Of a stretch of 64,000 nucleotides of DNA, positions 9,533 through 63,988 are shown piece by piece. A program made the translations under genes and the position numbers. The DNA comes from Scenedesmus sp. PABB004 (lineage: Eukaryota), in contig JABVCE010000009.1 of the NCBI GenBank assembly GCA_014905635.1, positions 1,054,001 through 1,118,000 of the forward strand, given 5' to 3'. Numbering within the stretch: position 1 is the first letter of the stretch; each line of letters begins with the position of its first letter. The notes under the pieces are model-generated. The model saw only the letters and a list, made by a program, of their open reading frames with translations. It was not told where the DNA came from and made no database searches.

Positions 9533-11883
9533 ATGGCGCCGGCGCTGGCGCGCTGGCGTGGCGCGCAGGCGCCGGCGCGGCCGGGCGGTGGCCCGCCGAG
9601 CGCCCGCCAGGCGCGCGGCGCGGCGCCCAGGCCGCCGCGGCAAGGCCGGGCGCACGCCTGCCTCGCGCAGGTGCGGCCGCGCCCGGCCGCGCGCGCGCTG
9701 CGCGCCCCCTGCGCGGCCGCGCCCGCAGCTCTGTGTGGCCACAGCAGCGCGCCGCCGCCGCCGCCGGGGGGGGCCGCCGCCGCCCACGCGCCGCCCTCCA
9801 CGCCCCGCAGGCCACCCATGCCGCGCCTGGTGGGGCGCAGCAGGCGCCGCCGGACGGCGCGCAGCAGCCGGAGGGCGCCGGCAGCGCCGCGGGCCCAGCG
9901 GCGCCGGGCGGCGGCGGAGGCGACGGGCCGCCGGGCATGGTCGCGCTGATGGAGGCGTGGGGCCAGCTCGCGACGCGCCTGCAGGCCCCCGCCGGCCGCC
10001 CGGGAGCTGCCGGCGGCGGCGGCGCGCGCGGCGCGGCGGGCAGCGACGACGACGACGACGACGCTGTGTCTCAGCTCATCCTGTCGGCGCTCAAGCTCGC
10101 GGTGCGCAGCCTCTCGCGCGTGCCCGGCGGCGCCGCGGCGCCGCGGTCGCGGCCCGCGGTGCAGCGCTCGCTCGCGCTCGCGGCGGCGCTCGCCGAGCTC
10201 TACGCCGCGGGGCTGCCGCTCGACGCGGCGTCGATCGCCGCCGGCATCGTCGCCGACGCGGTCGACGCGGGCGCGCTCCACGCCCGCACCGTCGCGGCCA
10301 AGCTCGGCGCCGAGGTCGCGGGGCTCGTGCACGACGTGCTGTCGGTGCGCCACGCGCCCGAGCGCGCAGAGACGCTCGACGACGCGAGCAGCAGGTGCGT
10401 GCGGGGGCGGGCGCGCGCGCGGGCACCTCACCTCTGGCGGCCGCCGACCCCGCCCGCGGCGCCCGCGGGGCCTCACCGCCGCCGCGTCGCCGCCGCCGCC
10501 GCCGTCTCTGCGCGCGCCGCAGCGCGCTGCGCGGCTGGCTCCTCACGGCCTACGACGTGCGCGCGTGCGCGATCGAAGTCGTGTGGCGCTGGCTCGCGCT
10601 CGCTACGCCGCCGGGCGACGCCGCGGCGCAGCAGCTGCTCGCGCTCGAGGCCCTGACCGTGTACAGCCCGCTGGGGCACGCGCTGGGCCTGGGCGTGTGC
10701 GCGACCGCGCTCGAGGACGCCGCCTTCAAGGCACGCGCCGCGGCGGGGCGGCTCGTGGGGCGCGGGCGCGCGGGGCGCGGGCGGCGGGGCACAGGGCGGC
10801 GGGGCACAGGGCGGCTGGGCGTGGCGGCGGCGGCGGCGGCACGCGCTCACCCGCCGCTCCGCGCGGCTGTGCCCGCCGCCCGCGCCGCGCCGCGCCGCAG
10901 GTGCTGTTCCCCAGCTCCTACGCGAGCACCGCGCGCCAAGTGCTGCCGCTGTCAGGCGCTGCGGCGTCGCTGCTGTCGCGCTGCGAGGCCGCGCTGCGCG
11001 ACGCCGCGGCGCGCGACGGCGCCTTCGTGGCGCTCTCGGGCGGCCTGCAGCTGCTGAGCCGCACCAAGAGCCTCTACAGCATCATGCGCAAGCTCCTGCG
11101 CCTGCAGGACCCCGCCGCCGGCAGCCGGCGGCTGGGGCAGATGTTTGACCTGCTCGGAATGCGCGCGGTCGTGCTGCCGCGCCCCGACCTGCCGCCGGAG
11201 GCGGCGGAGCAGGCGGCGGTCGCGGCGTGTTACCGGCTGCAGGTGAGCGCACGCGGCGCGGCGCTGCGTGCCGTGCGGGCGGGCGCGCGCCACGTGCGCC
11301 TGGGCGCCCGCCGGCGCCGCGGCGCCGCGGCGCCGACGCCCCCGCCGCGCCCGCGCCGCGCAGGAGCTCGCGCACGAGCGCTGGCCGGCGGCGGCCGGGC
11401 GCAGCAAGGACTACATCGCGTCGCCCAAGCCCAACGGCTACCAGAGCCTGCACTCCACGCTCTGCCTGCAGCAGCAGCCAGGCGACGGCGGCGGCTTCGG
11501 CAGCAGCAGCAGCAGCAGCAGCAGCGGGAGCAGCAGCAGCAGCGGGAACGGCGGCGGCGGCGGCGGCGGCAGCCCGGTGCTGTCGTACCTGGAGCTGCAG
11601 GTGCGCACCGCGGCGATGCACGCAGCCGCCGAGGGCGGCGACGCGGCGCACGCAGGCTACAAGGGCCGCCTGGAGCGGCGGCAGGTGCGCCACCTGCAGG
11701 CCTGGACCACGCAGCTGCAGCGGCGGCTCGCGGCGCCGCAGCAGCAGCTGCTGCTGTCGCTGCCACACGCCGTGGCCGACGGCGACGGCGCCAGCCCGCC
11801 GGCGCTGCAGCCGAGCTTTGCCGTCTTTGCGACCAGCAGCAGCGACAGCGACGCCGAGGGCGGCGACGGCGGGCCGCTGTCGC

Positions 11884-11921
<38 letters not shown>

Positions 11922-14900
11922 GGTGGCGCCAGTGGCGTCGCGGTGCAGGCGCAGGCGCATCAGCAGCTGCAGCAGCAGTTGCGGCAGGAGCAGCAGGAGC
12001 AGCAGGAGCACCGGCAGCCCGCGCCCGCCGTCGCGCCGGCGGCGGAGCACCAGCCGGCCGCGGCGGCGGCGGCCGCAGCGTCGCTGTTCCACCACCTGGA
12101 CCTCGACGGCGACGGCCTGCTGAGCCTTTACGAGCTCACCGAGCTGCTCGGCGAGCTCGGCGAGCTCGCGCCGCCGCCGCCGCCGCCGGCCGGCGCGGGG
12201 CCCGCGTCCGCGAGCGCGGCGGCGCTCGCGCTCGGCGCCGGGCGCGGCGGCGCCGCCGCGGGCGCGGGGCGTGGCGCGCACGCGCAGCAGCTGCTGGAGG
12301 CGCTGGACACGGACGGCGACGGCCTGGTGAGCATGGCGGAGTTTCTCGCCTTCTACATGTCGCACACGGGCGGCGAGGGCGGGAGCGGGAGCGAGGCGAG
12401 CAGCGAGACGGGCGACGCCGGCGTCGGCGGCGCGCTGGGCAGCCGCGACAGCGTGGGCAGCAGCACGTCGCTGGACCAGGCGTCGGCCGCCGGCAGCGGC
12501 GGCGCCGCGCCCCGCGCGGGGCAAGTGTGCCGCGTGTCCATGCACGCGCCGCCGGGCGCCGGCGGCGGCCGCGCCGGCCCCGTGCGGCAGCGCCCGCCGG
12601 GCGTGCCCACGGCCGGCCCCGCGGGCGGCGCGCGCGCGGCGCGGGGTAGCTCCTGCAGGTGCAGGGCGAGCCACGCGCAGGCGTCCGCGAGCGCCGCCGG
12701 CAGCACCGTCATCGCTGCGTCCGGCCCGGCGCCTGCCGGCAGTGATGCCGCGGCGCAGGCGGAGCAGCTCGGCGGCAGCAGCAGCGGCAGCAGCAGCGGC
12801 AGCAGCGAGGCGCAGCCCGGCCGCTGGCGGCGGCAGCAGCAGCCGGTGCCGCTGCTGCGGCCCGCGCAGCAGCGCACGGGGGCCGAGCAGCCCGACGGCG
12901 CCGGCAGCGACGCGGCGGCGCCGTCGCCGGCGCCGTCGCCGCCGCCGTCGCTGGCCGGCAGCCCCGGCGGCACGCTCGGCGACGAGGGCGAGCCCTCGCC
13001 GGGCAGCTACTACCAGCAGCAGCAGCAGCAGCTCGAGCTCGAGCTGAGCTTTGAGGAGGAGGACATGCAGCACCAGCGCTGGCTGCGCGCGCAGCAGCGC
13101 CAGCTGCCCAGCCTGCTGCAGGACGCCGCGGCGGGGCGGTCGCCCTGCTACGTGCTCGTCCCGCTGCCGGCGCGGCCCGACGGCGGGCGCGGCCCGCCGC
13201 CGGGCATGTCGGACCGGCTCGGGCAGCCGCTGCCGGCGCTGGAGGTGCCGGTGCTGGGGCCGCTGCTGCTGACCAACGCACCCCAGGTCTTCCGCTCCGC
13301 CGACGTCGTGCTCGACGCGCCGGGGCACGACCGGCTCGCGGTCACGCTGGAGCTGGTCAAGCCGACCGGCGCGGACGAGGCGGTGCTGACGGCGCGCAAC
13401 CTCAGCCGCGTCGCGCGCGGGCGCTTTGCGGCGGCGTGCGTCGGCCTCAACGGCGCGCCCGGCGCGCTCGAGCCGCACCGCGCCGCGGTGCCGCTCGCGC
13501 ACGGCGATGTGCTGCAGCTCGGCGAGAGCGGGCTCGCGCTCGAGGTGCGCCGCCTGGCGCGCCCCGCGACGGCGCCGGGCGCGGTCGCGCTGTCGCGCTA
13601 CTGCGGCGCCTACGCGAGCAGCGCGCTCGGGCTGGACCTGCCCGTCGGCGGCGCGCTCGCGGAGCTGCAGGCGGCCGAGGCGGGCGGCGCGCCGTGGAAC
13701 GCGGCGGCCGCGGACGCGGTCGAGGCGGAGCTGCGCGAGGTGTCGCGCCTCGTGCGCAGCAACGCGCGCGGCGCCGAGGTGCAGCTCGCCGCGCTCGCGG
13801 CGGCGCACCCGGGCGCGCCGGGGCCCTGGTTCGTGTGGGCGCAGCTCGCGGCCAGCAGTCGGCGGCACTGGATGGCGCGCGAGCTCTTCCGCGCCGCCGC
13901 GGTGTGCCAGCAGCGCCAGCTCGAGGCCGCCGCGCGCGCCGAGGCCGACGGCGCCGGCCCCGGCACCGCCGCCGCGCTGCTCGAGGTCGCCGCGCCGGAC
14001 GACGCGGGCGAGGCGGCGGCGGCGGCGGCGGCGCTGGCGCCGCCGCCGCAGCCCGAGCAGCAGCCCGCGGCCGCGGCCGCCGCGCTCGGCGCGCCGGCGG
14101 GCTGGGGCGCGCCGCCTGGCAGCGGCGGCGGCGCGCGCGCCGGCGCGCGGCGCCGCGGCGCGGAGCCGTCGCGCCCGCGCAGCGCCGCGTTCCGCCTGAG
14201 CAGCCGCCTGGTGCAGGTGCTGCGCGTGTGGGGGCGGTCTGACTGGGACCAGTCGCTGTTCGGCCCCGCGCGCCGGCTGTGGCGGCTCGCCGCGAACGAG
14301 GCGTTCCGGTGGCCCTACGACCTCGCGGCCGAGGGCGGCGGCGCGGTGCTGCACGCGTGGGCGACGGCCGAGTTTGAGCGCGACAACGTGCTCAACGCGC
14401 GCGTCGTCGTCGGCGAGGCGCTGCGCAAGTGCCCCAACGACGCAGCGGTGCGGCGGCGGCCCAGGGGGAAAAGCTGTTGCACGCAGCGGGGCGTCGCGCC
14501 GCGTCGCGCCGCGTCGCGCGCGTCGCGCGCCGCCCCGCATCACGCCCCGCCGCCGCCGCCACCGCGCGCCGCCGCGCCGCGCCGCAGGTCGCGGTGCTCG
14601 CGGGCAGCATCGAGGCGTCGGCGGGCGAGACGGGCGCGGCGCGCGCGCTCTTTGTGCGCGCGTACGGCCTGAACAAGGCCGACAAGCGCCTCTATATGTA
14701 CTGGCCGCGCCTCGAGGCGGAGGCGGGGCAGGGCGAGCGCGCGCGGCTGCTCTTCCAGGCGGGCCTGTCGCTGCACCCGAGCAACACCAAGATCCTCAAC
14801 CTCTACGCCTGCTTCGAGGAGCGCGCGGGCAACCTGGAGCGCGCGCGCGAGCTCCACGCGCGCGCGCTCGGCATCGACGCGGCCAGCGCGACGTCGATGC

Positions 14901-47527: not shown

Positions 47528-48199
47528 GCGCGGCGGCGTGTGTTGAATGGTCTGCCCTGGCCTGGCGGCGTGCGCGCAGCGCGGCCGACTGCAGAGCGCG
47601 CGGCGGCGGGGCGCGGTGCGGTGGCGCGCCGCCGCTGGGGCCGCTCCACCCGTGGAGATCTGCCGCACGGCGGCTGCGCGGCGAAGCTGGCACGCGCCTC
47701 GCGACGCGCCGGCGCGCTGCTGCTGAACCTGCCGCCGGGCCCCTGTTACTCCCTGCCGCGCGCCTGGCCGCCCCCACGCTCAGATCGCACCTCCCGCCCC
47801 ACCCCCGCCCACGCCTACGCTCATGCACCGCCCACGCGCAGCCGGCAGCGCCGCCGCGCGCCGCGCCTCGCCCGCCGTGGCAGGCAGGCGCGCCGCGCGC
47901 GGGCGCGGCCGCGCCCCCGGGGCCGCCCCCGCCTGCCCAGGGGGCGGGCGAGCGGCCGCGCGCCCCCGCCGCCGCGCGCGGCCCGCGGCAGCAGCAGCAC
48001 GCCGCGCCGCCGCCGCCGCTGCTGTGGCCGCTGAGTGCGTGTCGCCGTCGCCGTCGTGGCGGACGCGCCGCCCTTGCCCGAGCAGCGCCGGCATCTGCCG
48101 CTGCATCGTGCACGCGGGCAAAGCGCGCGCCGCGCCGTGCGCCGCGCTGCGCAGCCCTCGCGCGCGCGCTCGCATCACCGCCTTGCCGCAGCCGCACCG

Positions 48200-51100
48200 C
48201 TGTGCGCGGGGCTGCCGCGGTGCAGCGGGAAGAAGAGCACCTGCCTCTTTGCCCCGCTCCACCGCGGCGGCGCCGCGCCCGGCACGGCCCTGCGCAGGGC
48301 ATGCAGTCGCACCGCGCGCCACAGGGTGAGCTTCAAGCCGCGCCGTCGGCACACGTCGCCTGCGGGCCTGCAGCTCACCCTGCGGAGTGTTGTGCCTGCA
48401 GCCGCGCGCGCGGGCCGCGCCGGCGGCGCGGCGGCCGGCCATCTGACCAGACCGACGCGCGCGCGCGCGCGCGCGCGCGCGCGCCCCAGCTCGCGCAGCA
48501 CCGCGGCGCGGGGCGGGATGGGGGGCGCGCGCGCGCGGCTCGCACGCGCCGCGTCCCGCGCGCCCCGCCCACACCCCCGCCCCGCCCCCGCCCACGACCA
48601 ACCCTTTGCGCAGCGCCGTGAGCGTGAGCGCGGGCGCGGTGAAGCCGCCCCCGCTGCCCAGGTGTATGTAGCTCGGACCCTGCGCACGGGGCCTTCCTAC
48701 CGCACCTGGCGAGCGGCGGCGGCTTCGCGGCGCGCGCGCTCGCGCTGGCGGTGCTTGCGCCTGGAGACTCCGCCTCCAAGCTTACCACCGCCGCTGCATC
48801 GCGCACTCGGGCAAAGGTGCGGCGCGCCGCGCCCCGCCGCTGCCGCCCCAGCCCCAGCCGCCGCCGCAAAGCGCGGCCGCGAAGCGCGCGCCCCACCTTG
48901 TGCTTGTTGACAGGCGTCAACAAGTGCAAGGTGGGGCGTGGCAGCAGCGGCGCAGGGGCGGGGCGGGGGGGGGGGGGGGCAGGGCGCGGCGGCCGGCCAT
49001 CTGACCAGACCGGGGCGGGGCACGCGCGCCCGCCTGGGATCACGCTGGGATCACGCTGTTGGGGTCACGCTGCTCCTCCTCAGGGGACAGCGTGCGCGGC
49101 TGGCCCCGGGGGTGTCATCAGACGCTGTCGCCCGGTCGTCGTGACCGCGTCGGACATTCCCAGGGCCAGCTGCGTCCGCTGCTCACGGTGCTGACCTCGG
49201 CGTGTGCTCACGACGTTGCGCACGCAGCCCGGGGCGGCACCACCGACTTGGCAGCCGCGCGCGTGCTGCGCGCGTGCTGCGTGCTGTGCGCGTGCTGGGT
49301 GCTGCGCGTGTGCATGCTGCGTGCTGCGTGCTGCGCCGCAGAAGCTGCAGCCACGCCGAACTGGAGGCCCGCCACCTCGCTCTTGGGCTGTATGCGCAGC
49401 ATGAGTTGCGCGTGGAGCTGAAGAGCGAGGTGGCTGGCCTCCCGCTCGGCGCTGGCGGCCGGCTGCAGCCGCGATGATGCGTTGTAGCTCCCCGAGCAAA
49501 GGCAGCAACACCGCCATCATCGTGCGCGAGCGCCCGGGCGGCATCGACGTGGCGTCGCCGGGGGTGCCTCGCGTGCCGCTCGCGGCGGGCACCCGCTGGC
49601 GCTCGCGCACCGTCCGGCCGCCCACCCGCTGCGGGTGGCGGCGCCCACGTCCGTCACTCTCGGCAAGGTCGAAGCTGGGTTGGCCGGCATCAGCTACGCG
49701 CCGCGCGCCGGCCAGCCCAGCTTCAACCTGGCCGGGTGGCATGACGGCTGTCCACGTAGAGCGCGGCGGTGGCGCCCACGGACCGGTCACGGGCGTCAGG
49801 TCAAAGCTGACCGGCCCGCGGTGCGCCGCGGTCGCGCGCGGCGGTCGCGCGCCCGCGCGCCCGCCCCGCCGTCCTCGCGCGCCCGCGCGCGCCGATCGAG
49901 CGCGGCGGCACGCCCCTGGCGTGCATCGCCCACTCGGGCAAGGTGCGCGGCGGCCGCGCGGGCGGGCGGGACGCGCGCGCGCCGCGCACTCGCGCGCTCG
50001 CTGTGCCGCGCGCGCCGCCGCGCACTCGCACGCGCCCCGCCCCGCCCCGCCCCGCGCCCCGGCCCCCCGTGCCGCAGCTGCGCCCCGCCGGCCACCGTGC
50101 CACCACTGTGAGGGCCGCGATGGGCTGGAGGCTGCTGAGCTGGGCGCGCAAACACACTACACACACACCGCCATCCTCGTGCGGCTGTTTGCGGTGGCGC
50201 TCGCACCTGCTGAGCTCAGCTGAGCTCAGCTGAGCTCAGCCGCACGGAGTCACGCCCCCGACGCAGTCGAGCCACGCCGGGCTAGAGCACGGTCCTCGTG
50301 AGCTTGAGCCCGGGGCCGAGCTTGAGCCCGGCGTGGCTGGTCGGCGGCGGGGACGCAGCCGCGGCGACGCGCCGCACGGCCCTCCTCCCCTCCCCGCCGC
50401 CCTCGGGGGCCGGGCGCTGGGCGGCGTCGCCGCCGAGCCGCTGAGCGAGGTGAAGAGCAGGGCACCGGGGGCGGTGGCTGCTGTTCACCTGTCTCAGCGG
50501 CTTGGTGGTGGTGGCGACTTGGCTCAGCCCGTGCGGCGGCACCGCCGCGCCGCAGCGCACGGTGGAGAGCCTGGCGGCGGGCGGGGACAGCGCCTTGACC
50601 AAGAAGCGTTCCTGGTGACGGCCCCGATCACGCGCGGCGCCAGGCTGCTCAGCGCCGCGGCGCTGGTGCGCGTGCTGCACACAACGTCGCCAGCGCCCAG
50701 GACTCCTCGTGAGCGTGCTCGCGGCGTCGGCGGCGTGGCAGGAGCGCGAGGAGGTGCGGGCGCGCGCGGCGCGTGCGCTGGGAGCGCCGGCCGGCGCCGC
50801 GCGCGCGCGCCCACGGGCCTGCGCCCGCCGCCCGCGGGCCCACCGCCCGCGCCGATCGCGCCGATCGCGCCCGCGCGCCCGCGCGCGCGCGGCGCGCGCC
50901 CACCGTTGCCGGCCGCGCGGCCAAGCATAGCCGCTGGCTGGCGGCGTGTGCCGCGAGGTCCACGTCGTAGGCTGGGGTGTTGACGACGTGGGCCTGCGCC
51001 CCGAGCCTACGACGTGGGCCTGGCCGCGCACGCCGCCAGCGGCGCGCCCACCGCGGCCAGCTCGACCTCGCGCGGCCCGCGCCCCTCGCGCCTGCAGACC

Positions 51101-52912
51101 CTTTCAACGCGGCCGCCGGCGCGCGCGCGCCTGCGTCGTTGCCCGCGCCGGCGGGCTGGAAAGGTCGGTGGCCCAACGCCGCCGACCTTCCCCAGCCCGC
51201 CGGCGCCTCCCTCGCTCAGCGACAAGGCGAGCCTGCCCTTCGCCAACGTCGCGTGCCCGGCCATTGCCACGGCCAACAGCGCGGGTGCGGCGCGGAGAGC
51301 GGCGCGCGCGGGCGCGCCGCGGGCCGCGCGCAGTGCGCGCCGCTGCACCCGCGGGCGGCGCGCTCACCCTGCCCCACCCCGCCCCCACCCCTCCACCCCC
51401 TGGTCGAGGCCGCCATGCACGACCGGACGGGCTGCGGCGGCACCCCGAGCTCACGCGCCTCATGCGCAGCTGCACCTGCGCCGCGGGGACGCGCAGCACG
51501 GCGCGATCGTCGGCGCCGGTGTAGTCGGTCGCCAGGCGCTGCAGGACGAGCTCGTAGGTCTTGTCCTTGATTCCACCCAGCGCGAGCGTGGTGGCGCCAG
51601 GATAACACCTACGAGCTCGTCCTGGAGCGCCTGGCGACGTCCTGCATCGGCGACGACCGCGCCGTGCTGCGCGTCCCAGGGCGGCTCTTCCCGGGGTCTC
51701 GAGCAGGCCGAGCTCGACGAGAGCCGTTGCACGATGCTCTCGTCAAGCTCGGCCTGCCCGCGACGCTGCACCAGAGGTTCGTGCGCGCGCTGCATGCTGC
51801 GCCCGCGCGTGTGCGAGCGTGCGTGCGCGTGCTGCGTGTTGCGGGAGCGCGCGCGCGCCCACCCCCGTGCGCCCCCCTCCCCCTCCCGCCCGCGTCCCCC
51901 GCGTCCCTCGCGCCCGCAGACCCCTTCAACGCGGCCGCCGGCACCCCTGGGCGGCGCGCTCACCCTCGCCCACCCCCCCCCCCCCCCCCCCCCCCCCGCC
52001 CATGGCCAAGGCGTGCGTGAGGCGCGTCCGCGTGTCGTCGATCGAGATATCTGTGGCTGCCAGGCCCGTCCTGAAGCTGCACCGACATCCCGATCGACGA
52101 CAAGCTGACGCGCCTCATGATCACGCACGCCGTTGCCATGGGCGACGCGCAGCTGCTGTTCACCACCACGCTCGCGCTGGGCGGCCTCAAGGAGAACAGC
52201 TATCGATCACCGTCGGCGCCGTCATAGTCGGTCGTCTTGCGCTGCAGGTGCAGCTCATCGACTGTGACAGCGCCGACGACCGCGCCGTGCTGCGTGTGCC
52301 TGCGGTGCAGGTGCAGCTGCGCCTCACCGTGCACAGCAAGCAGCTCGCGCGCGGGATGGAGAAGTGCGTGGCGCGCGCGCCGCGCGGCGAGACGTTCACG
52401 CGCGCCCACGAGCTGCCTGCGGTGCGCGGCCGCCCGCGCGCCGCGCGGCCGCCGCCTGCTGCTCTGAGCGCAAGCGGCGCGCCGCACACCCCGCCACCTC
52501 CCCCTTCACCCGCCACCGCGCCCACCACCGCCCCCGCCCTCCTGCGCCGCCAGGACGCGCCTGCGCGACCCCCTGCGGGGACGGCTTCCACGCGGGCGGG
52601 CGGGCACACACCAGCGCAAGCGGGGCGGCACGACCGACGTCGAGATCGGCGGCCGCGTGCGCGTGCGCATGCTGCGCCTCAGGTGCGTGCGCGCGCTGCA
52701 TGCCGCGTGTTGCGGGAGCGCGCGCGCGCGTGCTGCGCGCTGCGTGTTGCGGGAGCCCGCGCGCGCCCACCCCAGCCCCCGCCCCCGCCCCCGCCGCCGC
52801 CCCCAAACCCCTAGGCTGACCACCGTGGCGGAGAGCGCGGCGAGGTGCGCGTGTCGTAGTTGATCGACGCGTGCGCGTCCCCCTCCTACGACCCGCGCAC
52901 CACGCCGCTGCT
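48200..52912 (+). ncRNA. Putative multi-hairpin (hpRNA / small-RNA precursor) array built from scrambled gene fragments
   Basis: About 18 imperfect inverted repeats (13-70 bp arms) separated by intron-like GC-rich stretches; arms from ~49340 onward are homologous to exons of 52.9-55.9 kb or to each other; no long sensible ORF. RNA function is inferred. Confidence 0.55.
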
Positions 52913-55902
52913 GCCGCTCGTCAAGGGCCCCAACTGCTTCAACGGCCTCCTGCTCCCGCGCAAGGGCGTGGGCATGGAGCAGCTGCCGGTGCGCACGGCC
53001 CGCGCGCCCGCGCCCGCGCCGGCGCCCCCGCTCCTCGCCGACTGCAGCGCCCAGCCCCCCGAGGGCGGCCGCCGCTCTGATCGGCGCCCCGCCGCGCCGC
53101 CCCGCTGGCTGCGACGCCCTCACCGCGCCCCTCGCCGCGCCCGCCCCGCGCCGCGCCTCTGCGCGCAGGCGCTGCTGCGCCTCTGCTTCGCGAGCGAGAC
53201 GGCGGGCCTCCTGCTCGGCGTGGCGGCCGCCTTCACCCGCGGCCAGCACAGCAACAGCGCGATCCTCGTCCGCGAGCGGCCTGGCGGCTTTGACGTTCTG
53301 CTGGGCGTTGCCGAGGGCGCAGGGCGCGCCGCCGGCCGGCCCCGCGTCGCGCTGATCCACCACGCGGCGGCGCACCAGGTGCAGGGCCGCGAGGCCAGCA
53401 ACGCGCCGCGCGCCGCCCCGCCCGCGTTTGACCTGCCCGAGGCCGAGGCGGAGGACGTGGACGTGGCCACCCGCACCGCGCTCGACGAGTTTGTCGTCGA
53501 CGTGTGCCAGCTGCGGAGGACCAGCGGTGCGCGCGCGCGCGCGCGCCACGCGGGGACGGCATGGGCGGGCTGCCCGAGCGCGCGCGCATGCTCGAGCGTG
53601 CGCGCTCGCCCCGACGCCCGCCCCGCGCCCGCCGCCCGCCGCGCTCCCCTCCCCTCCCACCAGGCCGCAAGCCCGTGCTCAAGCCGGCGGGCCGGTTTGC
53701 CGTCGCGCTCGCCTCCCACCCGTCGCCCTACGCGCTCCGCGTCACCACGGCGCGCTGGCCCGGGCTGGAGACGGCGGCAGTGCTCGGGCCGGCCATGTTT
53801 GCGCAGGCCTGCGTGAGCAGCCAGCTGCTCCGCGCCGTGTCGCGCGCGGGCCTGGTCCCCGGCCCCATGCAGCTGGGCACGCGCGCCGGCCTCGCGGTGC
53901 GCGCGGCGCGGCGCGCGGCGCGCGGCACGCTGCGCCCGCCCGCCCTGCACCACCAGGCCCAGCCGCCGCCCGCCCCCCGCCGCCCGCCTCCCTCCCACTC
54001 CCGCCTGCCCGCCACCCAGGGCGTGAGCGCGATGGTGGAGGACCTGCGGCAGGCGCTGGGCGACGGCCCCGGCCGCGGGCCGGTGCTGCTCGCGTCGACC
54101 ATGGAGGACGTCGGCAAGTACGAGGTGGGGCGCGGCGCGCTGCGCGGCGGCGCTGGGGCGGCGCCGGCACGGCGGCGGCGGCGGCGGCGGCTGCGAGGGC
54201 GGCGGCGGTGGCGGCCTCGTGGCCGCGCGCTGCCCGCGCGCGCCCAACGCGGCGCCGCGCTCACGCGCTCGCACACGCCCGCCCGCCCCGCGCGCCTGCG
54301 CCCACGCCGCTGCAGCGCGCCGTCGTGCGCGCCGCCGGAAACGGCGACGCGTACAAGAGCTGGCTGGCGCACGTGCTGAGCGTGCCGTGGGTGCTGGTCG
54401 TGGAGGACGTCACGGACGTGACGGCGCCCAGCCCGGGCACCACGCACCAGCTCCCCGCCGCGCTCGCGCCCTGGGCCATGGCCGGCGCCGCCAACACGCC
54501 GCTCGACAAGCTCACCGCCGGCCGCCGCTTCCTCATCAAGGGCCTCGTCCCGTGGGGCGCGCGCCTGCTGAGCGTCGCGCTGCTGGTGCACGTGCCCGCC
54601 GTCAAGGGCGCCGCCCCGCCGCACATCCGCAACGAGGGAGGGAGGGCAGTCGTGGCGCGCGCCGCGCTCGCGCCGACCAACCGCGCCGGCCGACCGCGCC
54701 GCGCCGCGCCGCGCCGCGCGCAGGTCGCCGCCGTCGACGGCCACGCGGCGGCGCCCTACGACGTCGACCTGGCCGCGCACATCGCGAGCGGCGCGCCCGC
54801 CGAGGCGGCGCTGCTCGGCCTCGCGCCGCCCGGCGCCGCCGCGGTCGTGCCGCTCGCCGAGGCGCTCAAGGCGGCGGTCGACGCCGAGGCGGCCAGCGAC
54901 GCGGCGGCCGGCGAGGCGCTGCGCGCCGCGACGGCCGCCGAGGCGGCGGGGGGCGCGGCGGCCGCCCAGGCGGTGCGCGAGGCGGCGCGCGCCGCGGCGG
55001 CGGCGGCGGAGGCGGAGCTGGAGGAGCAGCAGGAGCGGCGCCTCGCCGGCCTCGGCCCGGCCCCCTGGGTGGCGCTCGCCCCCGGCGGCGTCCGCGCCTA
55101 CGCGGCGTGCCCGCTGAGCGGCGCGCTGCTGTCGCCGCCCGACACGGTCGGCGGCGTGCACTGCGGCGTGAGGACGGGGTGGGCCGGCCCCGCCCTCGCG
55201 CCCTGCGCCGTGCCCGACTCGGCGCGGTGGCGCGGCGCGTGCGGCGCCTGGCTGGCGCCCGCCGCGGGCGGCGGCGCGGCCGAGGTGCTCATGCCCGTCG
55301 CGTCGCCGTCGCTGCGCCTGCAGCCGCCGGGCGAGCCCGAGCCCGACGGCGCCGCGGCGGCGCGGCTGCGCGCGTTCGCGCCGCGCGCGTCCGCCGCGGC
55401 GCTCGCGGTCGAGCTGCAGCGCACGCGCGGCCGCGGCGGCGAGGGCGCGCTGAGCTTCCGCTTCGCCAAGATCGGCGACGGCGGCGCGAAGCGCCTGAGC
55501 AGGGGTTGGTACGTTGACGCGGCGCGCGGCATGGCGGCCGTCGCAGCCGGCGGCGCGCCCGCCGGCGCGGCCGAGGCGGCGCCCGCGGCCGGCGCGGCCG
55601 GCGCGGCCGGCGCGGGCACGAGCGCGGCCGCGGCCGCGGCGCCGCCGCAGCCCGCGCCGGGCGCGAGCGGCGCGGGCACGAGCGCGGCCGCGGCCGCGGC
55701 CGGCGCGGCCACACCGCCGCCGCCGCCCGTGACGCGGCAGCGCACCAACACGCCCGGCGACAGCGTGGCCACGCGCACCGCGGCGGGCGAGCCGTCGCCG
55801 CGCAGCGCGCACGAGGCCGGCGTCCGCGGCGGCGCCGGCGACGGGCGCGGCGGTGGGCGCGGCGGCGCGGCGCCGCGCGCGCTGTTCCCCGGCCGGCGCT
55901 AG
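52886..55902 (+). CDS. Unknown multi-exon protein, 3' part intact; 5' part apparently converted into hairpins (possibly a pseudogene)
   Basis: Exons ..GMEQLP|ALLRLCFASETAGLLLG..|GRKPVLKP..|GVSAMVEDL..|RAVVRAAG..|VAAVDGH..LFPGRR* with introns ending in CAG; no recognisable domain; start unclear. Confidence 0.55.
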
Positions 55903-58187: not shown

Positions 58188-58382
58188 GCGCGGCGAGTCG
58201 GTGTGCAGCACTGGAGCAGGCTCGGCGTTATTTGCTTGGTGACCTGCTGCAGGATCAGCTTGCTGTTCACTCTGTGGCAGATTATGTGATGGACATCTGG
58301 AAGATGCGGGACACCGTCCTTAAGGGGCGCGGGACCAATGGGCGCGAGCCTGTGGTGTAACTATCTTTATCTTTATCTTTTT
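58188..58382 (+). mobile_element. Family B (RTEX-like) 5'-truncated insertion, TSD AGCTG
   Basis: Encodes CAALEQARRYLL..IWKMRDTVLKGRGTNGREPVV*, then (TATCTT)n; TSD at 58183-58187 and 58383-58387. Confidence 0.85.
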
Positions 58383-59133
58383 AGCTGCTTCTCGATCTCA
58401 CCCCACACCTCGCCTGCCACCGGGCACCGCCAGAAATGGTGCGCCTCGCTCGGGTGCAGCGCGCCGCCCAGTCCGGACGCCTCCGCTGGCTCCGGCGCCT
58501 CCGGCGGCCCTGGGCAGCAGTAGACACAATAGTCCACCATGCCCGGCCCCGGCTGCATGCGGCTGGCAGTCGGAAAGGCCTGCAGCGTGAGCCGCCATGC
58601 CGCCTCCTTGTACGTGTTGGGCACCTTGAGCTGCCACCAGCGCGCCAGGGCTTGGCACACCGTGGCGTGGCGCGTGCGCATCGCAAGCTCATCACCCCCA
58701 ATGTGCGGCAAACCATCAAACTCAGAAACCGTCAGACAGTGGCGGTGGTGGCGGGCATGCAGCTCCGCGCGCGCCGGCAGCGCCTGCAGCCGCGTGGCCA
58801 GCGCCACCGTGAGCTGCCCCAGCCGTACCCCCGGCCGGCAACCAGGCTGCACCGGCCGACCCACAAGCGGCCAGCCCAGGCCAACCGCAATCGCCGCACG
58901 CGCCGCCGCCAACGCTGCTGGCTGCACCGGCGCCGGGGCGCTCACGGGCTGGCCCGCGCGCGCCGCCGCCGCCAGCCGAGCTCGCGCCGCCGCCACCCAG
59001 GATGGCGGCAGCCTGTCAACCAGCGCACGCACGTCATCGAGTGCACGCTGCCTACCTGCATGGTAACACTGCCGGGAAGCCAGGCATGGCACCCAGACTG
59101 CAGCCAGGTAATTCATGTGTTCCGCCAACCCAA

Positions 59134-59377
59134 CGGCGTGTGCTGCGTGTGCGCCTGGGCAGGCTTGCCGCGGTTGGTGTGTGGTGCCCCTGCTGGTGGC
59201 GGCCTGCCCCACGTCGTTTGCGTGAGATGAGGCGGGGTTTGCGCTGGTTTTCCCCCGCTGCCCCTGTGGCCCGGTAGGGCCTGCGCGGCGTGGCTGCACG
59301 GTCAAGAGGACCAGCTACCGTCCTTAAGGGGCGCGGGCCCGATGTGCGCGAGCATACGGGGTAAATGACCTTGACCT
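59134..59377 (+). mobile_element. Family C 5'-truncated retroelement with (TGACCT)n tail, TSD AACCCAA
   Basis: TSD at 59127-59133 and 59378-59384; near-identical to the 3' part of 61938-62706. Confidence 0.87.
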
Positions 59378-59523
59378 AACCCAAGGCCCCAACGAGGCGG
59401 AGTCAACCGATCCGATTCAAGAACGGCCAGCAGCGTGACCGCCTGGCCCACCGTCTGCAGGCAGGGCAGCCCGCGCAAGCCCGGGGCCGCCACACATTCC
59501 AAGCCCACTGCCACATCACGCAC

Positions 59524-59703
59524 TGACCCCGGGGCTTAGGGCCTTGCGGCCTGTGCCCGGCGCTGTAGCAGTGAAGGGGTGGTTTTCTGACGGTTTTCCC
59601 ACGGCGCGTGCGCACCAAGCGTGCCGCCCAAGAACGCATTCGTTCTTGCCCTGCCCCGAGTCGGGAATCCCGACTGAGCCTGCGTGTAACAACAACAACA
59701 ACA
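59524..59703 (+). mobile_element. Family D short retroelement insertion with TGTAA and (AAC)n tail, TSD ACGCAC
   Basis: TSD at 59518-59523 and 59704-59709; removing it rejoins host frame PGEECVR|DVAVGL. Confidence 0.82.
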
Positions 59704-60984
59704 ACGCACACACTCCTCCCCCGGCTGGGCCGGCCAGCGCCACTGCTGCCGCACCGTGAGCAGCGGGTTGCCCCACAGGGGGGCATCCCAGCTGTGGGCC
59801 CGCCAGTCATACTCGCCCGGCCCCAGCCACTCCAGCGGCGGCAGCGCGCGCAGCCCGAGCGCGAACGAGCGCAGGGGCTGCGGCAGCCGCTGGCGCCCGC
59901 TGTCAAAAAGAAGGCGTTTGTCGCACAACATCAATCCCCACACCGTGTCCCCGCACGCGCCCGCATCGGGGCGCACGCGATCTGCCCACACGCGCCAAAG
60001 CTCCCCACACGCCGCCGCCCAGGGCACTGCACCCGCGGCCCCCTGCCCCGTGATGAGCTCCGCGCCCTCCATCGCCCAGCGCGCATGCAGGTGTTCGCGC
60101 ACCGGCAGCAGCCCCATGCCTCCCTCCCTCGGATGCGCAGCCATGCATGCCTTGGGGATGCCGGGCGGGCGGCGCAGGTCGCCCTCGGGGTCCAACCCTG
60201 CGTCCACCAGCCCTCCGCACCACTTTAGGATGTCAGTGAGATGCTGCTCAGTCAAGCCACCCCCAAACTGGCCCGCGTAGAGCACCGTGGCCAGCGCGTA
60301 CGCGTTGGCCGCAAAGGCGCGGCCAAACGACGACATGCGCGGGAGCATCGACACACGCCGCAGCGCGCGCCGCACGTGTGTCATACGCGTCTCCCAATCA
60401 GCGTCGCTGCCGCCCCGACCGTCAAACACCATCCCCAACGCTGCAGCAGTGTGCACGACGGGCATGCCGTGCACCGCATGGGGCTGGCCGCCGCTCCCCG
60501 CCGCCGCCGCCTGCAGCCCAATGGGCAGCAGCTTGGTTTTGGTGAGGTTGAGGCGCTGCCCCGACGCCGCTGCAAAGTCATTCATGCACCCGCAAAAGTG
60601 GGGGACGCCCTGCAGCGAGGTGATGAACGGCTCCGCGTCATCCGCGTACTGCGCCGCCACCACCTGGGTGCCCGCTGCAGCCAGCCCCACCCCACACGCA
60701 CGGAGGTGGCACAGGAGCGCCTGCCCCACAAACAGGTACAGCAAGGGCGCCAGCGGGCAGCCCTGCCTCACGCCCGCCTGACACGCATACAGAGACGACG
60801 AAAATCCATTGACGCACGCGCACGTGCGCGTGTTGGTCAACAACACCGACATCCAGCCCAGGAATCCTGACCCCACCCCAAGCTGCTCCGCTACCGCCAG
60901 CAAGAAACCCCTGTCCACGGTGTCGTAGGCCTTGCTTAAATCAGTGAAAATCGCGACCGCCCCCCGTCCCTCTGCCCGCAGCAA

Positions 60985-61432
60985 AGATAAAGATAAAGAT
61001 AAAGATAGTTACACCACAGGCTCGCGCCCATTGGTCCCGCGCCCCTTAAGGACGGTGTCCCGCATCTTCCAGATGTCCATCACATAATCTGCCACAGAGT
61101 GAACAGCAAGCTGATCCTGTAGCAGGTCACCAAGCAGATAACGCCGAGCCTGCTCCAGTGCTGCACACCGACTCGCCGCGCCGGTAACGGCAGCCCGAGG
61201 GGCCGCCGCACCAGCAGAGACGCTGCTGACGCTGACCGCCGCGCTGACATCATCAGCCCGAGGGGCCGCCGTATCAGCCGTGACGCCGCTATCGCTGATG
61301 CTGACCGCCGCGCCTGCGTCAGCAGCCCGAGGGGCCGCCGCGCTAGCCACGACGCCGGGGTCGCTGACGCTGCCGCTGCCGCCGCCGCCAGCTCCAGCCT
61401 CCAGCTCCTGGCTGCCGCTAGCCGCCATCCCG
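60985..61432 (-). mobile_element. Family B (RTEX-like) 5'-truncated insertion, TSD GCAGCAA
   Basis: TSD at 60978-60984 and 61433-61439; splits host RT at ALPALL|RAEGRG. Confidence 0.87.
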
Positions 61433-61937
61433 GCAGCAATGCCGGGAGGGCCTGCAGCAGCCTGATGCTGTCCCGAATCTGTCGCCCGCGCAGGAACGCG
61501 CTCTGACTGGTGTCGATGACTGAGTCCGCCACGCTGAGCAGGCGCGAGGCCAGCACCTTGGCCAGGATCCGGTAGTCATAGTTGAGCAGTTGGATCGGTC
61601 TGTACGCCCCTGGGTCCGCACCGTCGCCCCCAGGCTTGAGGATGGGAATGGCGACACCGTCGAGGAACGACGGCGGCACCGCCCCCGCCCGCCCGATGGC
61701 CGAGTACAGCGCTGCCAGCAGCGGGCTGAACTGCGCGCGGTACGCGCGGAACAGCTCGCCCGGCAGGCCGTCCAGCCCCGGCGCCTTACCCGGCGCCGTC
61801 GCCGCAATCGCCGCCAGCACCTCCGCGCCGGTGACGGTGGGCGCGCCCAGGCTCGCCGCCTGCTGAGGCTCGAGCCGCTGCGAGTGCTGCTGCACCGCCT
61901 GCAGCACCACTTGGCGCGCCGCCGGCGTGACCGCGGG

Positions 61938-62706
61938 GGCTGCGCATCACAGGCGGCGGTGGGGCGGCAGCAGCGCGGCCGGCGGCGCCGGACGGAGAGG
62001 GCGTCCCCGGCGTGCGTAGAGGTGCACGCCGAGCCGTGGCGTGCTGCTGCTGCGTGACCTTCGTTTGGTGCTGAGCTGGGCGCGGCTGGCTCGGGGCGCG
62101 GCGCGCGCGTGGGTGTGGGCGGCGGTGGGGGGAGCGTGGGCGGGCTTGCGGCAGGCTTTTTGGTGGTGGGCGGTGCGTGCGGCTGGCCTTTTGGCCGAGC
62201 CGCCCGCGGGTCCTGGAGGGGGCTGGAGCTGGTGGGCGTTGGCCGGCGCGGGGCGGCGGTCGCCGCGGACCACGGCCCCGCGCGCGACGCCCAGCCGGCG
62301 CACGCCGGCCCCGCAGTGTTGAGTCCACAGAGTCTCCACTAGCCGCCCTGCACGGCCTACACGCGTCTACCGGTCATCCTTCCCCAAGCTCCTAACATTC
62401 GGTGCACCACGTCGCAGGGGGCGCGACTCTGCGAGTGACGGCCGGCGGGGCGCGGCGCGGCGCGGCGTGTGCTGCGTGTGCGCCTGGGCGGGCTTGCCGC
62501 GGTTGGTGTGTGGTGCCCCTGCTGGCGGCGGCCTGCCCCACGTCGTTTGCGTGAGATGAGGCGGGGTTTGCGCTGGTTTCCCCCCGCTGCCCCTGTGGCC
62601 CGGTAGGGCCTGCGCGGCGTGGCTGCACGGTCAAGAGGACCAGCTACCGTCCTTAAGGGGCGCGGGCCCGATGTGCGCGAGCATACGGGGTAAATGACCT
62701 TGACCT
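61938..62706 (+). mobile_element. Family C longest copy with (TGACCT)n tail, TSD TGACCGCGGG
   Basis: TSD at 61928-61937 and 62707-62716. Confidence 0.87.
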
Positions 62707-63534: not shown

Positions 63535-63915
63535 CAGTAGCAAGGCTACGACCGCGGTGTGGTCGCTGACCGCGCCCAGCCGGTCTGCGTGCCAGCACGA
63601 CGCCAGCTGCGGGGCGACGCCCGCCGACAAATGTATCCTGTCCAGCTGCCTCGCGGCTGGGGCAACGCCCGCCGACAAATGTATCCTGTCCAGCTGCCTC
63701 GCGGCTGGACAGGATACATTTGTCGGCGGGCGTCCAGCTGCCTCGCGGCTGGACAGGATACATTTGTCGGCGGGCGTCCAGCTGCCTCGCGGCTGGACAG
63801 GATACATTTGTCGGCGGGCGTCGCCCCGCAGCTGGCGTCGTGCTGGCACGCACGGACCCGAGAAGGGCGTTACCAGGGACGCACGGACCCCCAATGCAAA
63901 ACATCTTGACGACCG

Positions 63916-63988
63916 CGACCGCGGTGGGGATCGAACCCACGACCCTCGCCTCCGGAAAGCGATGCTCTATCCACTGAGCCACGCGGCC
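63916..63988 (-). tRNA. tRNA-Arg(CCG)
   Basis: 73-nt cloverleaf: acceptor GGCCGCG/CGCGGTC, D arm GCTCAGTGGATAGAGC, anticodon arm TCGCT-TTCCGGA-GGCGA, T arm GTGGG-TTCGATC-CCCAC; TTTT terminator at 63898-63901. Confidence 0.96.

Follow-up and report, generated by a model that had tools for sequence, protein, structure and literature searches.

How could a stretch of 4.7 kb beside a single gene come to hold a series of stem-loops whose arms carry blocks of that gene on both strands? The question is raised by positions 48200-52912 (hereafter the array) of a 64,000-nucleotide window, the whole stretch of DNA analysed here, from contig JABVCE010000009.1 of Scenedesmus sp. PABB004. The array adjoins a plus-strand gene at 51.9-55.9 kb, and an initial annotation had explained it as a spliced transcript converted, exon by exon, into a battery of short hairpins that silence their own gene family. 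Judged from its sequence, 48.0-52.9 kb is instead a head-to-tail series of partial copies of the adjacent gene, at least three in number, all of genomic origin and progressively degraded. The reading that we favour, with a probability of roughly 0.55, is a local hot spot of template-switch mutations in these pseudogenised tandem copies that extends into the gene's 5' portion; most likely the hairpins are scars left by mutation in unconstrained, repeat-rich DNA.

The stem-loops themselves are real. When the 18 intervals listed initially were folded with ViennaRNA and compared with 100 dinucleotide shuffles each, 14 of them gave z-scores of -5.2 to -17.1, among them 48887-48940 with the 25-bp stem and 4-nucleotide (nt) loop that had been described (z -11.4). 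The four weak folds are of two kinds: 48658-48709 (z -3.0) and 50545-50670 (z -2.3) are true inverted repeats, while 49126-49239 (z -0.3) and 49522-49610 (z -2.6) are unsupported. Altogether the array holds 16 inverted repeats with loops of 3-38 nt.

Their density was compared with shuffled sequence, as had been proposed beforehand. A scan of the whole 64 kb for ungapped inverted repeats (score of at least 16, loop of at most 80) returned 23 hairpins, 15 of them within 48200-52912, that is, in 7% of the length (binomial p = 3e-12), whereas in 40 block-wise dinucleotide shuffles of the same interval the count averaged 0.075 and never exceeded 1. Other 4.7-kb tiles of the window contain 0-2 hairpins each, and among the 13 hairpins with at least five A/T per arm, 12 fall in the array. 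A chance origin of the cluster is ruled out by the shuffles.

The gene from which the arms derive is recognised by its codon signature, with a G+C content of 0.94-1.0 at third codon positions (GC3) and of about 0.5 at second positions (GC2) in the gene body. Its exon blocks, named below by their start coordinates (e53169, e54020 and so on), are separated by introns of 86-89% G+C with gt...ag ends, and its tail is rich in alanine. Candidate start codons are present at 52353 and 52974. Past position 52912 the gene carries no hairpins except low-complexity ones at about 55.5 kb.

52884-55902, plus strand: hairpin-free gene body.
52884-52988, 53169-53525, 53666-53890, 54020-54124, 54319-54639 and 54724-55899, plus strand: exon blocks of the gene body.
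52084-52206, 52266-52424 and 52615-52683, plus strand: upstream exon blocks with the same codon signature.

By the searches made, the gene appears to be a lineage-specific orphan. Pfam gave no family for eight exon peptides, and word-indexed searches found no relative for e53169 among longer proteins or for residues 1-175 of the C-terminal open reading frame (ORF) among proteins of near length. HMMER, run with e53169 against 1.84 billion representatives, returned two matches (E 1.9e-7 and 3.7e-4); both were judged spurious from their sequences, being long repeat proteins aligned in several stretches. The ESM Atlas gave no usable match to the gene, and metagenome contigs gave 433 pattern matches but no relative by tblastn, nor an exact match to a 29-nt block. 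Within the window, a tblastn search for other copies of the gene placed 12 of 30 matches outside 48-56 kb, all of low complexity and none convincing.

Permissive blastn and tblastn comparisons of the array with the gene were swamped by GC-rich low-complexity matches, and composition-weighted scoring was used instead. The following units were distinguished.

48.0-49.1 kb, plus strand: fragmentary copy.
48045-48123, plus strand: exon-end-like block ending in CIVHAGK and then gtgcg, the first of three copies (direct repeats, tblastx).
49.15-51.09 kb, plus strand: copy A.
49155-49250: part of copy A, an antisense e52266 fragment (49155-49190, 26/36) followed by a sense e52615 fragment (49230-49249, 18/20).
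51076-51865, plus strand: unit U1, duplicating the gene's 5' portion (U2) in tandem.
51898-52773, plus strand: unit U2, the gene's own damaged 5' part (e52084, e52266, e52615; GC3 0.93-1.0), with two hairpins.

Copy A is collinear with the gene at 54-76% identity, with counterparts of e53169 at 49304-49740, of e54319 at 50390-50700 and of the start of e54724 at 50937-51090. U1 and U2 share eight collinear or inverted matching segments of 82-95% identity, intron-like pieces included. The copies of the CIVHAGK block (48097-48123 = 48790-48816, 25/27; 48795-48814 = 49922-49941, 19/20) probably correspond to the 3' end of e53169, by eye. The earlier statement that the blocks follow the exon order of the gene is correct within 49.3-51.1 kb and fails for the array as a whole, which is made of several partial copies and has pieces out of order (an e54020 fragment at 48.9 kb, copies of the 5' exons at 51.1-52.8 kb). 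Blocks of copy A that match one exon sit in three frames within about 300 nt, stops are present, and no plus-strand segment with a coding signature was found between about 47.0 and 52.07 kb; copy A is therefore non-coding as it stands.

Some smaller features lie between the gene-like blocks. Two intron-like spacers share an identical 30-mer (48425-48454 = 48983-49012, 30/30) within otherwise diverged sub-units, which suggests that this sequence was converted recently or is under constraint. Copy A has, between its e53169-like and e54319-like blocks, a perfect palindromic tandem repeat of 32 nt (50209-50240; 10-nt unit GCTGAGCTCA, about three copies). Homopolymer runs also occur in the spacers, of C for about 30 nt at 51968-51999 and of G for about 14 nt at 48968-48981, and are possible fork-stalling or error-prone sites.

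Two further candidates for the nature of the array were rejected. It is not a miniature inverted-repeat transposable element (MITE) or other dispersed repeat: comparison of 47-53 kb with the rest of the window gave no significant copy and one low-complexity match, and the assignable arms derive from the adjacent gene. Nor do the antisense arms build a second gene on the minus strand, for they are short and no open frame joins them.

The individual hairpins are listed below. Source blocks were assigned against a null of shuffled arms (95% level, 18 bits); six hairpins fall below it, and the assignments made by eye for the hairpins at 48322, 50253 and 51696 are excluded from all counts.

48199-48283, plus strand: 39-nt arms, 79% complementary, z -8.8; source block below the null.
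48322-48382, plus strand: 26-nt arms, 85% complementary, z -5.2; source block below the null.
48612-48755, plus strand: inverted repeat with 53-nt arms (81%) and a 38-nt spacer, enclosing 48658-48709; source below the null.
48887-48940, plus strand: both arms cover the 3' end of e54020 together with its 5' splice site and the adjoining 10 or so bases of the intron, antisense on the left; arms match the gene with 25 and 23 bits (null maximum 20).
49344-49469, plus strand: located where the e53169-like exon of copy A begins, z -10.3, arms 31 and 34 bits; the antisense arm occupies the position of the intron 3' end in the gene, with the apex at the 3' splice-site position.
49661-49734, plus strand: PSFDL/PSFNL hairpin, 28-nt arms, 89% complementary, z -7.8; the antisense arm is a mid-exon insertion relative to the gene.
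50253-50355, plus strand: 43-nt arms, 79% complementary (z -7.5 for 50270-50338); by eye like the start of e53666 (PVLKPAG), yet not above the null.
50426-50518, plus strand: from the middle of e54319 (amino acids 45-65; 50390-50442 against 54451-54503, plus strand), z -8.6; alone among the oriented hairpins in having its sense arm on the left.
50545-50670, plus strand: weak hairpin of the FLVKAL/FLVTAP block of e54319, antisense on the left, a repeat of 38-55 nt at 74-75%; both arms match the FLIKGL block (minus strand E 0.011, plus strand E 0.002).
50930-51043, plus strand: YDVDLAAH hairpin (e54724), 41-nt arms, 88%, z -8.9, antisense on the left, 30 and 34 bits.
51145-51206, plus strand: 28-nt arms, 93% complementary, z -10.3, an insertion in U1 relative to U2; source below the null.
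51486-51677, plus strand: the largest hairpin, 79-nt arms, 89% complementary, z -17.1; its left arm reproduces about 130 contiguous nt of the ancestral 5' exon in antisense, its right arm is the sense copy.
51696-51764, plus strand: 29-nt arms, 90% complementary, z -8.9; source block below the null, lying at the e52615-equivalent position of U1 (placed by 51775-51801 = 52681-52707; block assigned by eye).
51997-52144, plus strand: 59-nt arms, 88%, z -12.6; the beginning of e52084 in antisense (51998-52051, minus strand, E 1.4e-4), then e52084 itself.
52211-52278, plus strand: hairpin with an inverted spacer, four-point order 1-3-4-2, z -6.7.
52834-52912, plus strand: at the start of e52884, z -7.4, with the antisense arm upstream of the exon (52837-52908 self-inverted, 78%).

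Ten hairpins could be both assigned to coding blocks of the gene and oriented (those starting at 48887, 49344, 49661, 50426, 50545, 50930, 51486, 51997, 52211 and 52834). The KSEVAGL, PSFNL/PSFDL, FLVKAL/FLVTAP and YDVDLAAH blocks all occur on both strands where the initial annotation had placed them. In nine of the ten, the antisense arm is on the left and the sense block on the right, the latter continuing collinearly (two-sided p = 0.02). The common form is thus an upstream flank, the reverse complement of a block and then the block itself, with arms of 20-80 nt and sometimes an inverted spacer. When copy A is aligned with the gene, the antisense arms stand immediately upstream of the sense block that has been kept, either as added sequence or in place of what the gene has there. 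Part of the ancestral exon (about 52212-52257) survives in U2 in antisense only; its distal portion then recurs in sense, and an in-frame stop breaks the exon. Within the right arm of the largest hairpin, the worst-pairing stretch (51620-51645) resembles the reverse complement of part of e54020 (54093-54116; 26 bits against a shuffled-arm maximum of 20, with one 21-mer at three mismatches); the likeness may reflect a patch copied from a template 2.4 kb away, or be due to chance.

The arms also indicate what kind of template was copied. Conversion of a spliced transcript, as first proposed, is contradicted by the intron-like spacers that the array retains, by its collinearity with the genomic gene and by the several hairpins that lie mid-exon. 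The arms of 48887-48940 contain a 5' splice site and intron bases, and the copied template was therefore unspliced genomic sequence; the intron pieces shared by the tandem units speak against a spliced source as well. A retrocopy of spliced mRNA is ruled out by the same intron bases.

The aligned arm columns comprise 570 matches, 26 changes that keep G-U pairing on the plus strand, 16 that keep it on the minus strand, 59 transversions and 17 gaps. The pooled identity of the arms is 85%, homogeneous across hairpins (chi-square p = 0.54) and near that of U1 and U2. Over the same columns, copy A and the gene are 54-76% identical and the arms are 67-87% identical to each other. One hairpin is common to U1 and U2 in the same orientation (51506-51545 against 52209-52248, 33/40), and others are private to one unit. 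These values point to more than one round of events, which would have followed an older duplication and would be clustered in time.

A mechanism that makes such structures in single steps has been described. In the four-point model, copying proceeds up to point 1, continues in complement from point 2 to point 3 and resumes from point 4, and a new inverted repeat results if the fragment from 2 to 3 overlaps its flank; the event types 1-4-3-2 and 1-3-4-2 make up 31% and 23% of high-confidence human-chimpanzee events, and the latter type leaves an inverted spacer (PMC5453318). One template switch is reported to suffice for an entire hairpin, and some new microRNA (miRNA) genes of primates to have arisen in this way (PMC10710096). 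In the array, about 16 short segments would have been copied in reverse complement directly beside their source, each hairpin corresponding to one switch-and-return of a nascent DNA strand in replication or repair, of type 1-4-3-2 or 1-3-4-2. The events would have acted on genomic DNA and not on spliced RNA, and the near-uniform polarity could mean that they occurred on strands synthesised in one direction. Inverted and tandem repeats already present may stall forks and provoke further switches, making the hot spot self-reinforcing, while purifying selection may keep the functional gene body clean of hairpins. Later drift would have brought the arms to their present identity of about 85%, and selection was detected neither for pairing nor for complementarity to the gene. 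The anatomy of the array, its statistics, its genomic source and the lack of a pairing signal are thereby shown from the sequence; we infer the mechanism, the feedback and the absence of function alike. With the paralogous gene as a proxy for the ancestor, one switch-and-return fits 49344-49469, 49661-49734 and 52211-52278; the other hairpins are too diverged or have no reference.

Several observations weigh against this reading. The density is extreme for random mutation, for the other 59 kb or so, much of it intron or intergenic, contains only eight hairpins; a local cause or selection would thus seem to be needed, because 15 of 23 hairpins are concentrated in so small a part of the window. 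The longest arms, of about 80 nt, exceed the template-switch events described in the available text of PMC5453318 and PMC10710096. About 15% divergence, together with the use of the gene as a proxy ancestor, leaves individual switch points unprovable, and six hairpins are tied to no source block above the null.

The template-switch origin would still hold if a function had been added to it, and the two are compatible. Template switching might have turned the decaying tandem copies of a young orphan gene into a multi-hairpin leader that is co-transcribed with the surviving copy and diced; the duplicates would then serve as a polycistronic small-RNA or cis-cleavage module acting on the gene or its paralogues, an outcome that we consider unlikely. 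It is equally doubtful that the array is a hairpin-RNA (hpRNA) or miRNA-like locus, in which a plus-strand transcript, either on its own or as the leader of the gene's pre-mRNA, would be cut by a Dicer-like enzyme and would regulate the source gene or its paralogues in trans or by cleavage in cis. Many of the stems are long and stable enough for Dicer (25 bp at 48887-48940, about 80 bp at 51486-51677), the copies all share the gene's strand and immediately precede it, extending into its 5' portion, and the density of the cluster calls for an explanation. Precedents also exist, since most Chlamydomonas miRNAs are reported from introns and untranslated regions of coding RNAs (PMC4817775) and in Drosophila simulans hpRNAs of genic origin keep young selfish genes silent (PMC10317233, PMC10292708). 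The plus-strand G-U-compatible changes to which the initial annotation drew attention do exceed those of the minus strand, 26 to 16, but the excess is mild and not significant (p = 0.16), as is the greater stability of the plus strand in 12 of 18 hairpins (p = 0.24). Against such pairing, 59 of the 101 arm mismatches are transversions, which break it on both strands, and no compensatory pattern was found in the hairpin common to U1 and U2. In a comparison of the array with the exons of the adjacent gene for complementarity, another check proposed beforehand, no 21-mer occurs at 0-1 mismatch, and the antisense 21-mers at two (14) and three (94) mismatches are mostly of low complexity, with five non-low-complexity ones at two mismatches (49350-49353 against 53201-53204, and 52511 in a C-rich spacer). 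Sense arms are nearer to the gene than antisense arms in four of five three-way alignments (p = 0.38, a small sample), the opposite of what selection of guides for a target would give. Rfam, at its gathering threshold, had no match in the array and only a tRNA in the window. Taken together, the computed evidence leans against a small-RNA or silencing function as far as these sequences allow it to be judged; dicing of a transcript, miRNA-like seed targeting and targets elsewhere in the genome are possible. Nothing in the analysis indicates that the source gene is selfish, as had been suggested.

A single catastrophic episode of microhomology-mediated break-induced replication (MMBIR) or break-induced replication, in which a poorly processive polymerase switched back and forth many times and made tandem copies and hairpins together, would account for the homogeneous arm identities (p = 0.54) and their similarity to the identity of U1 and U2, for the uniform polarity (9/10), for the confinement to one 5-kb stretch and for the out-of-order mosaic (e54020 at 48.9 kb, antisense e52266 at 49.16 kb). 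We nevertheless hold it to be improbable: copy A diverges from the gene by more than its arms do from each other, which makes the duplication of A older than its hairpins, and the sharing of one hairpin by U1 and U2, with others private to one unit, indicates more than one round. Fold-back inverted joins are a known class of artefact, and chimeras formed by strand-displacing polymerases or in long-read library preparation could in principle imitate the array. The arms, however, differ by substitutions (101 mismatch against 17 gap columns), unlike fresh copies, the same hairpin is found in two diverged tandem units, the arms retain the G+C structure of codon positions and the window contains no N, which leaves an assembly or amplification artefact very improbable. 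Slightly less credible still is a functional coding gene with internal repeats whose antisense arms are spliced out as introns. Two antisense arms just upstream of an exon start do end in CAG, a possible shifted 3' splice site (49393-49398; 52859-52860), and the sense arms are the ones nearer to the gene in four of five hairpins; but mid-exon insertions give frameshifts and stops, plus-strand coding signal is absent between 47.0 and 52.07 kb, and by eye no frame-keeping GT...AG pair removes 52212-52257, the only candidates being 27-43 nt long.

An origin by inverted duplication of target genes is known for plant MIR genes. Known hpRNA and proto-MIR loci are, in the available descriptions, one long near-perfect inverted repeat, whereas the array consists of many short, separate hairpins of 54-76% identity to the gene. 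With the hpRNA loci of Drosophila simulans it shares arms that come from a protein-coding gene and a founder that is young and lineage-specific (PMC10317233, PMC10292708), and with Chlamydomonas miRNA precursors (PMC4817775) it would have in common stem-loops placed outside the coding portions of an mRNA, the natural substrate class if the organism is a GC-rich alga. Fork stalling and template switching (FoSTeS), MMBIR and inverted triplications resemble it in their iterative strand switches and in the duplicated and inverted segments gathered in one region (PMC11293582, PMC10766183), but the FoSTeS and MMBIR rearrangements in the available text are of kilobase to megabase scale and the segments of the array measure 20-130 nt. 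The closest likeness is to template-switch mutations (PMC5453318, PMC10710096, PMC8794818), in which an adjacent reverse complement replaces or precedes a block, sometimes with an inverted spacer, and a stem arises in one event from a source within tens of bases. The events treated in the available portions of these papers are scattered through genomes, while the array would hold about 16 in 4.7 kb; it differs further in arms of up to about 80 nt, in its restriction to the decaying tandem copies of one gene and in its near-uniform polarity. Template-switch hairpins and gene-derived inverted repeats are therefore known, and what is new is the density, the uniform polarity and the confinement to decaying copies of a single gene.

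If the array is purely mutational, it would be among the densest local records of template-switch events and would mark a replication-fragile spot. It would also show how fast stem-loops, the proposed raw material for new miRNA genes, can form from duplicates that are free of constraint in a genome very rich in G+C. If the stems are diced, the locus would represent a new route from a gene duplicate to a multi-hairpin regulator of an orphan gene, a battery caught at birth. In either case it carries a warning for annotation, as exon-like blocks on both strands do not here mean two genes.

The window as a whole has a G+C content of about 80% and contains intron-bearing genes; outside the array it includes the following features.

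10144-10425, plus strand: HD_4 domain (Pfam).
11247-14669, plus strand: ORF of a RelA/SpoT protein with EF-hands (Pfam).
About 24.1 kb: P450 (Pfam).
About 26.6 kb: helicase C-terminal domain (Pfam).
40.2-41.5 kb: RWD and IBR domains (Pfam).

The succession of HD_4, RelA/SpoT and EF-hand domains (10144-14669, plus strand) we take to be the architecture of the Ca-activated RelA/SpoT homologues (CRSH-like) known from plants and algae; it would suit either kind of organism and is no more specific than that. An element resembling a non-long-terminal-repeat (non-LTR) retrotransposon occupies about 58376-61946 on the minus strand, its onset lying about 2.5 kb downstream of the orphan gene. Two of its ORFs match RVT_1, 59539-61008 with E 2e-14 and 61083-61946 with E 3e-7, while 58376-59314 has a weak match to zf-RVT, and the G+C content of this region (63-71%) is below that of the rest of the window. 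The sole A/T-containing hairpin outside the array is an inverted repeat at 63659-63827, with 52-nt arms (46/52 complementary) and a 65-nt spacer. A tRNA gene on the minus strand (63916-63988, Rfam 61.6 bits) is located about 90 nt from this repeat, which could be an element like a short interspersed nuclear element (SINE) or a MITE.

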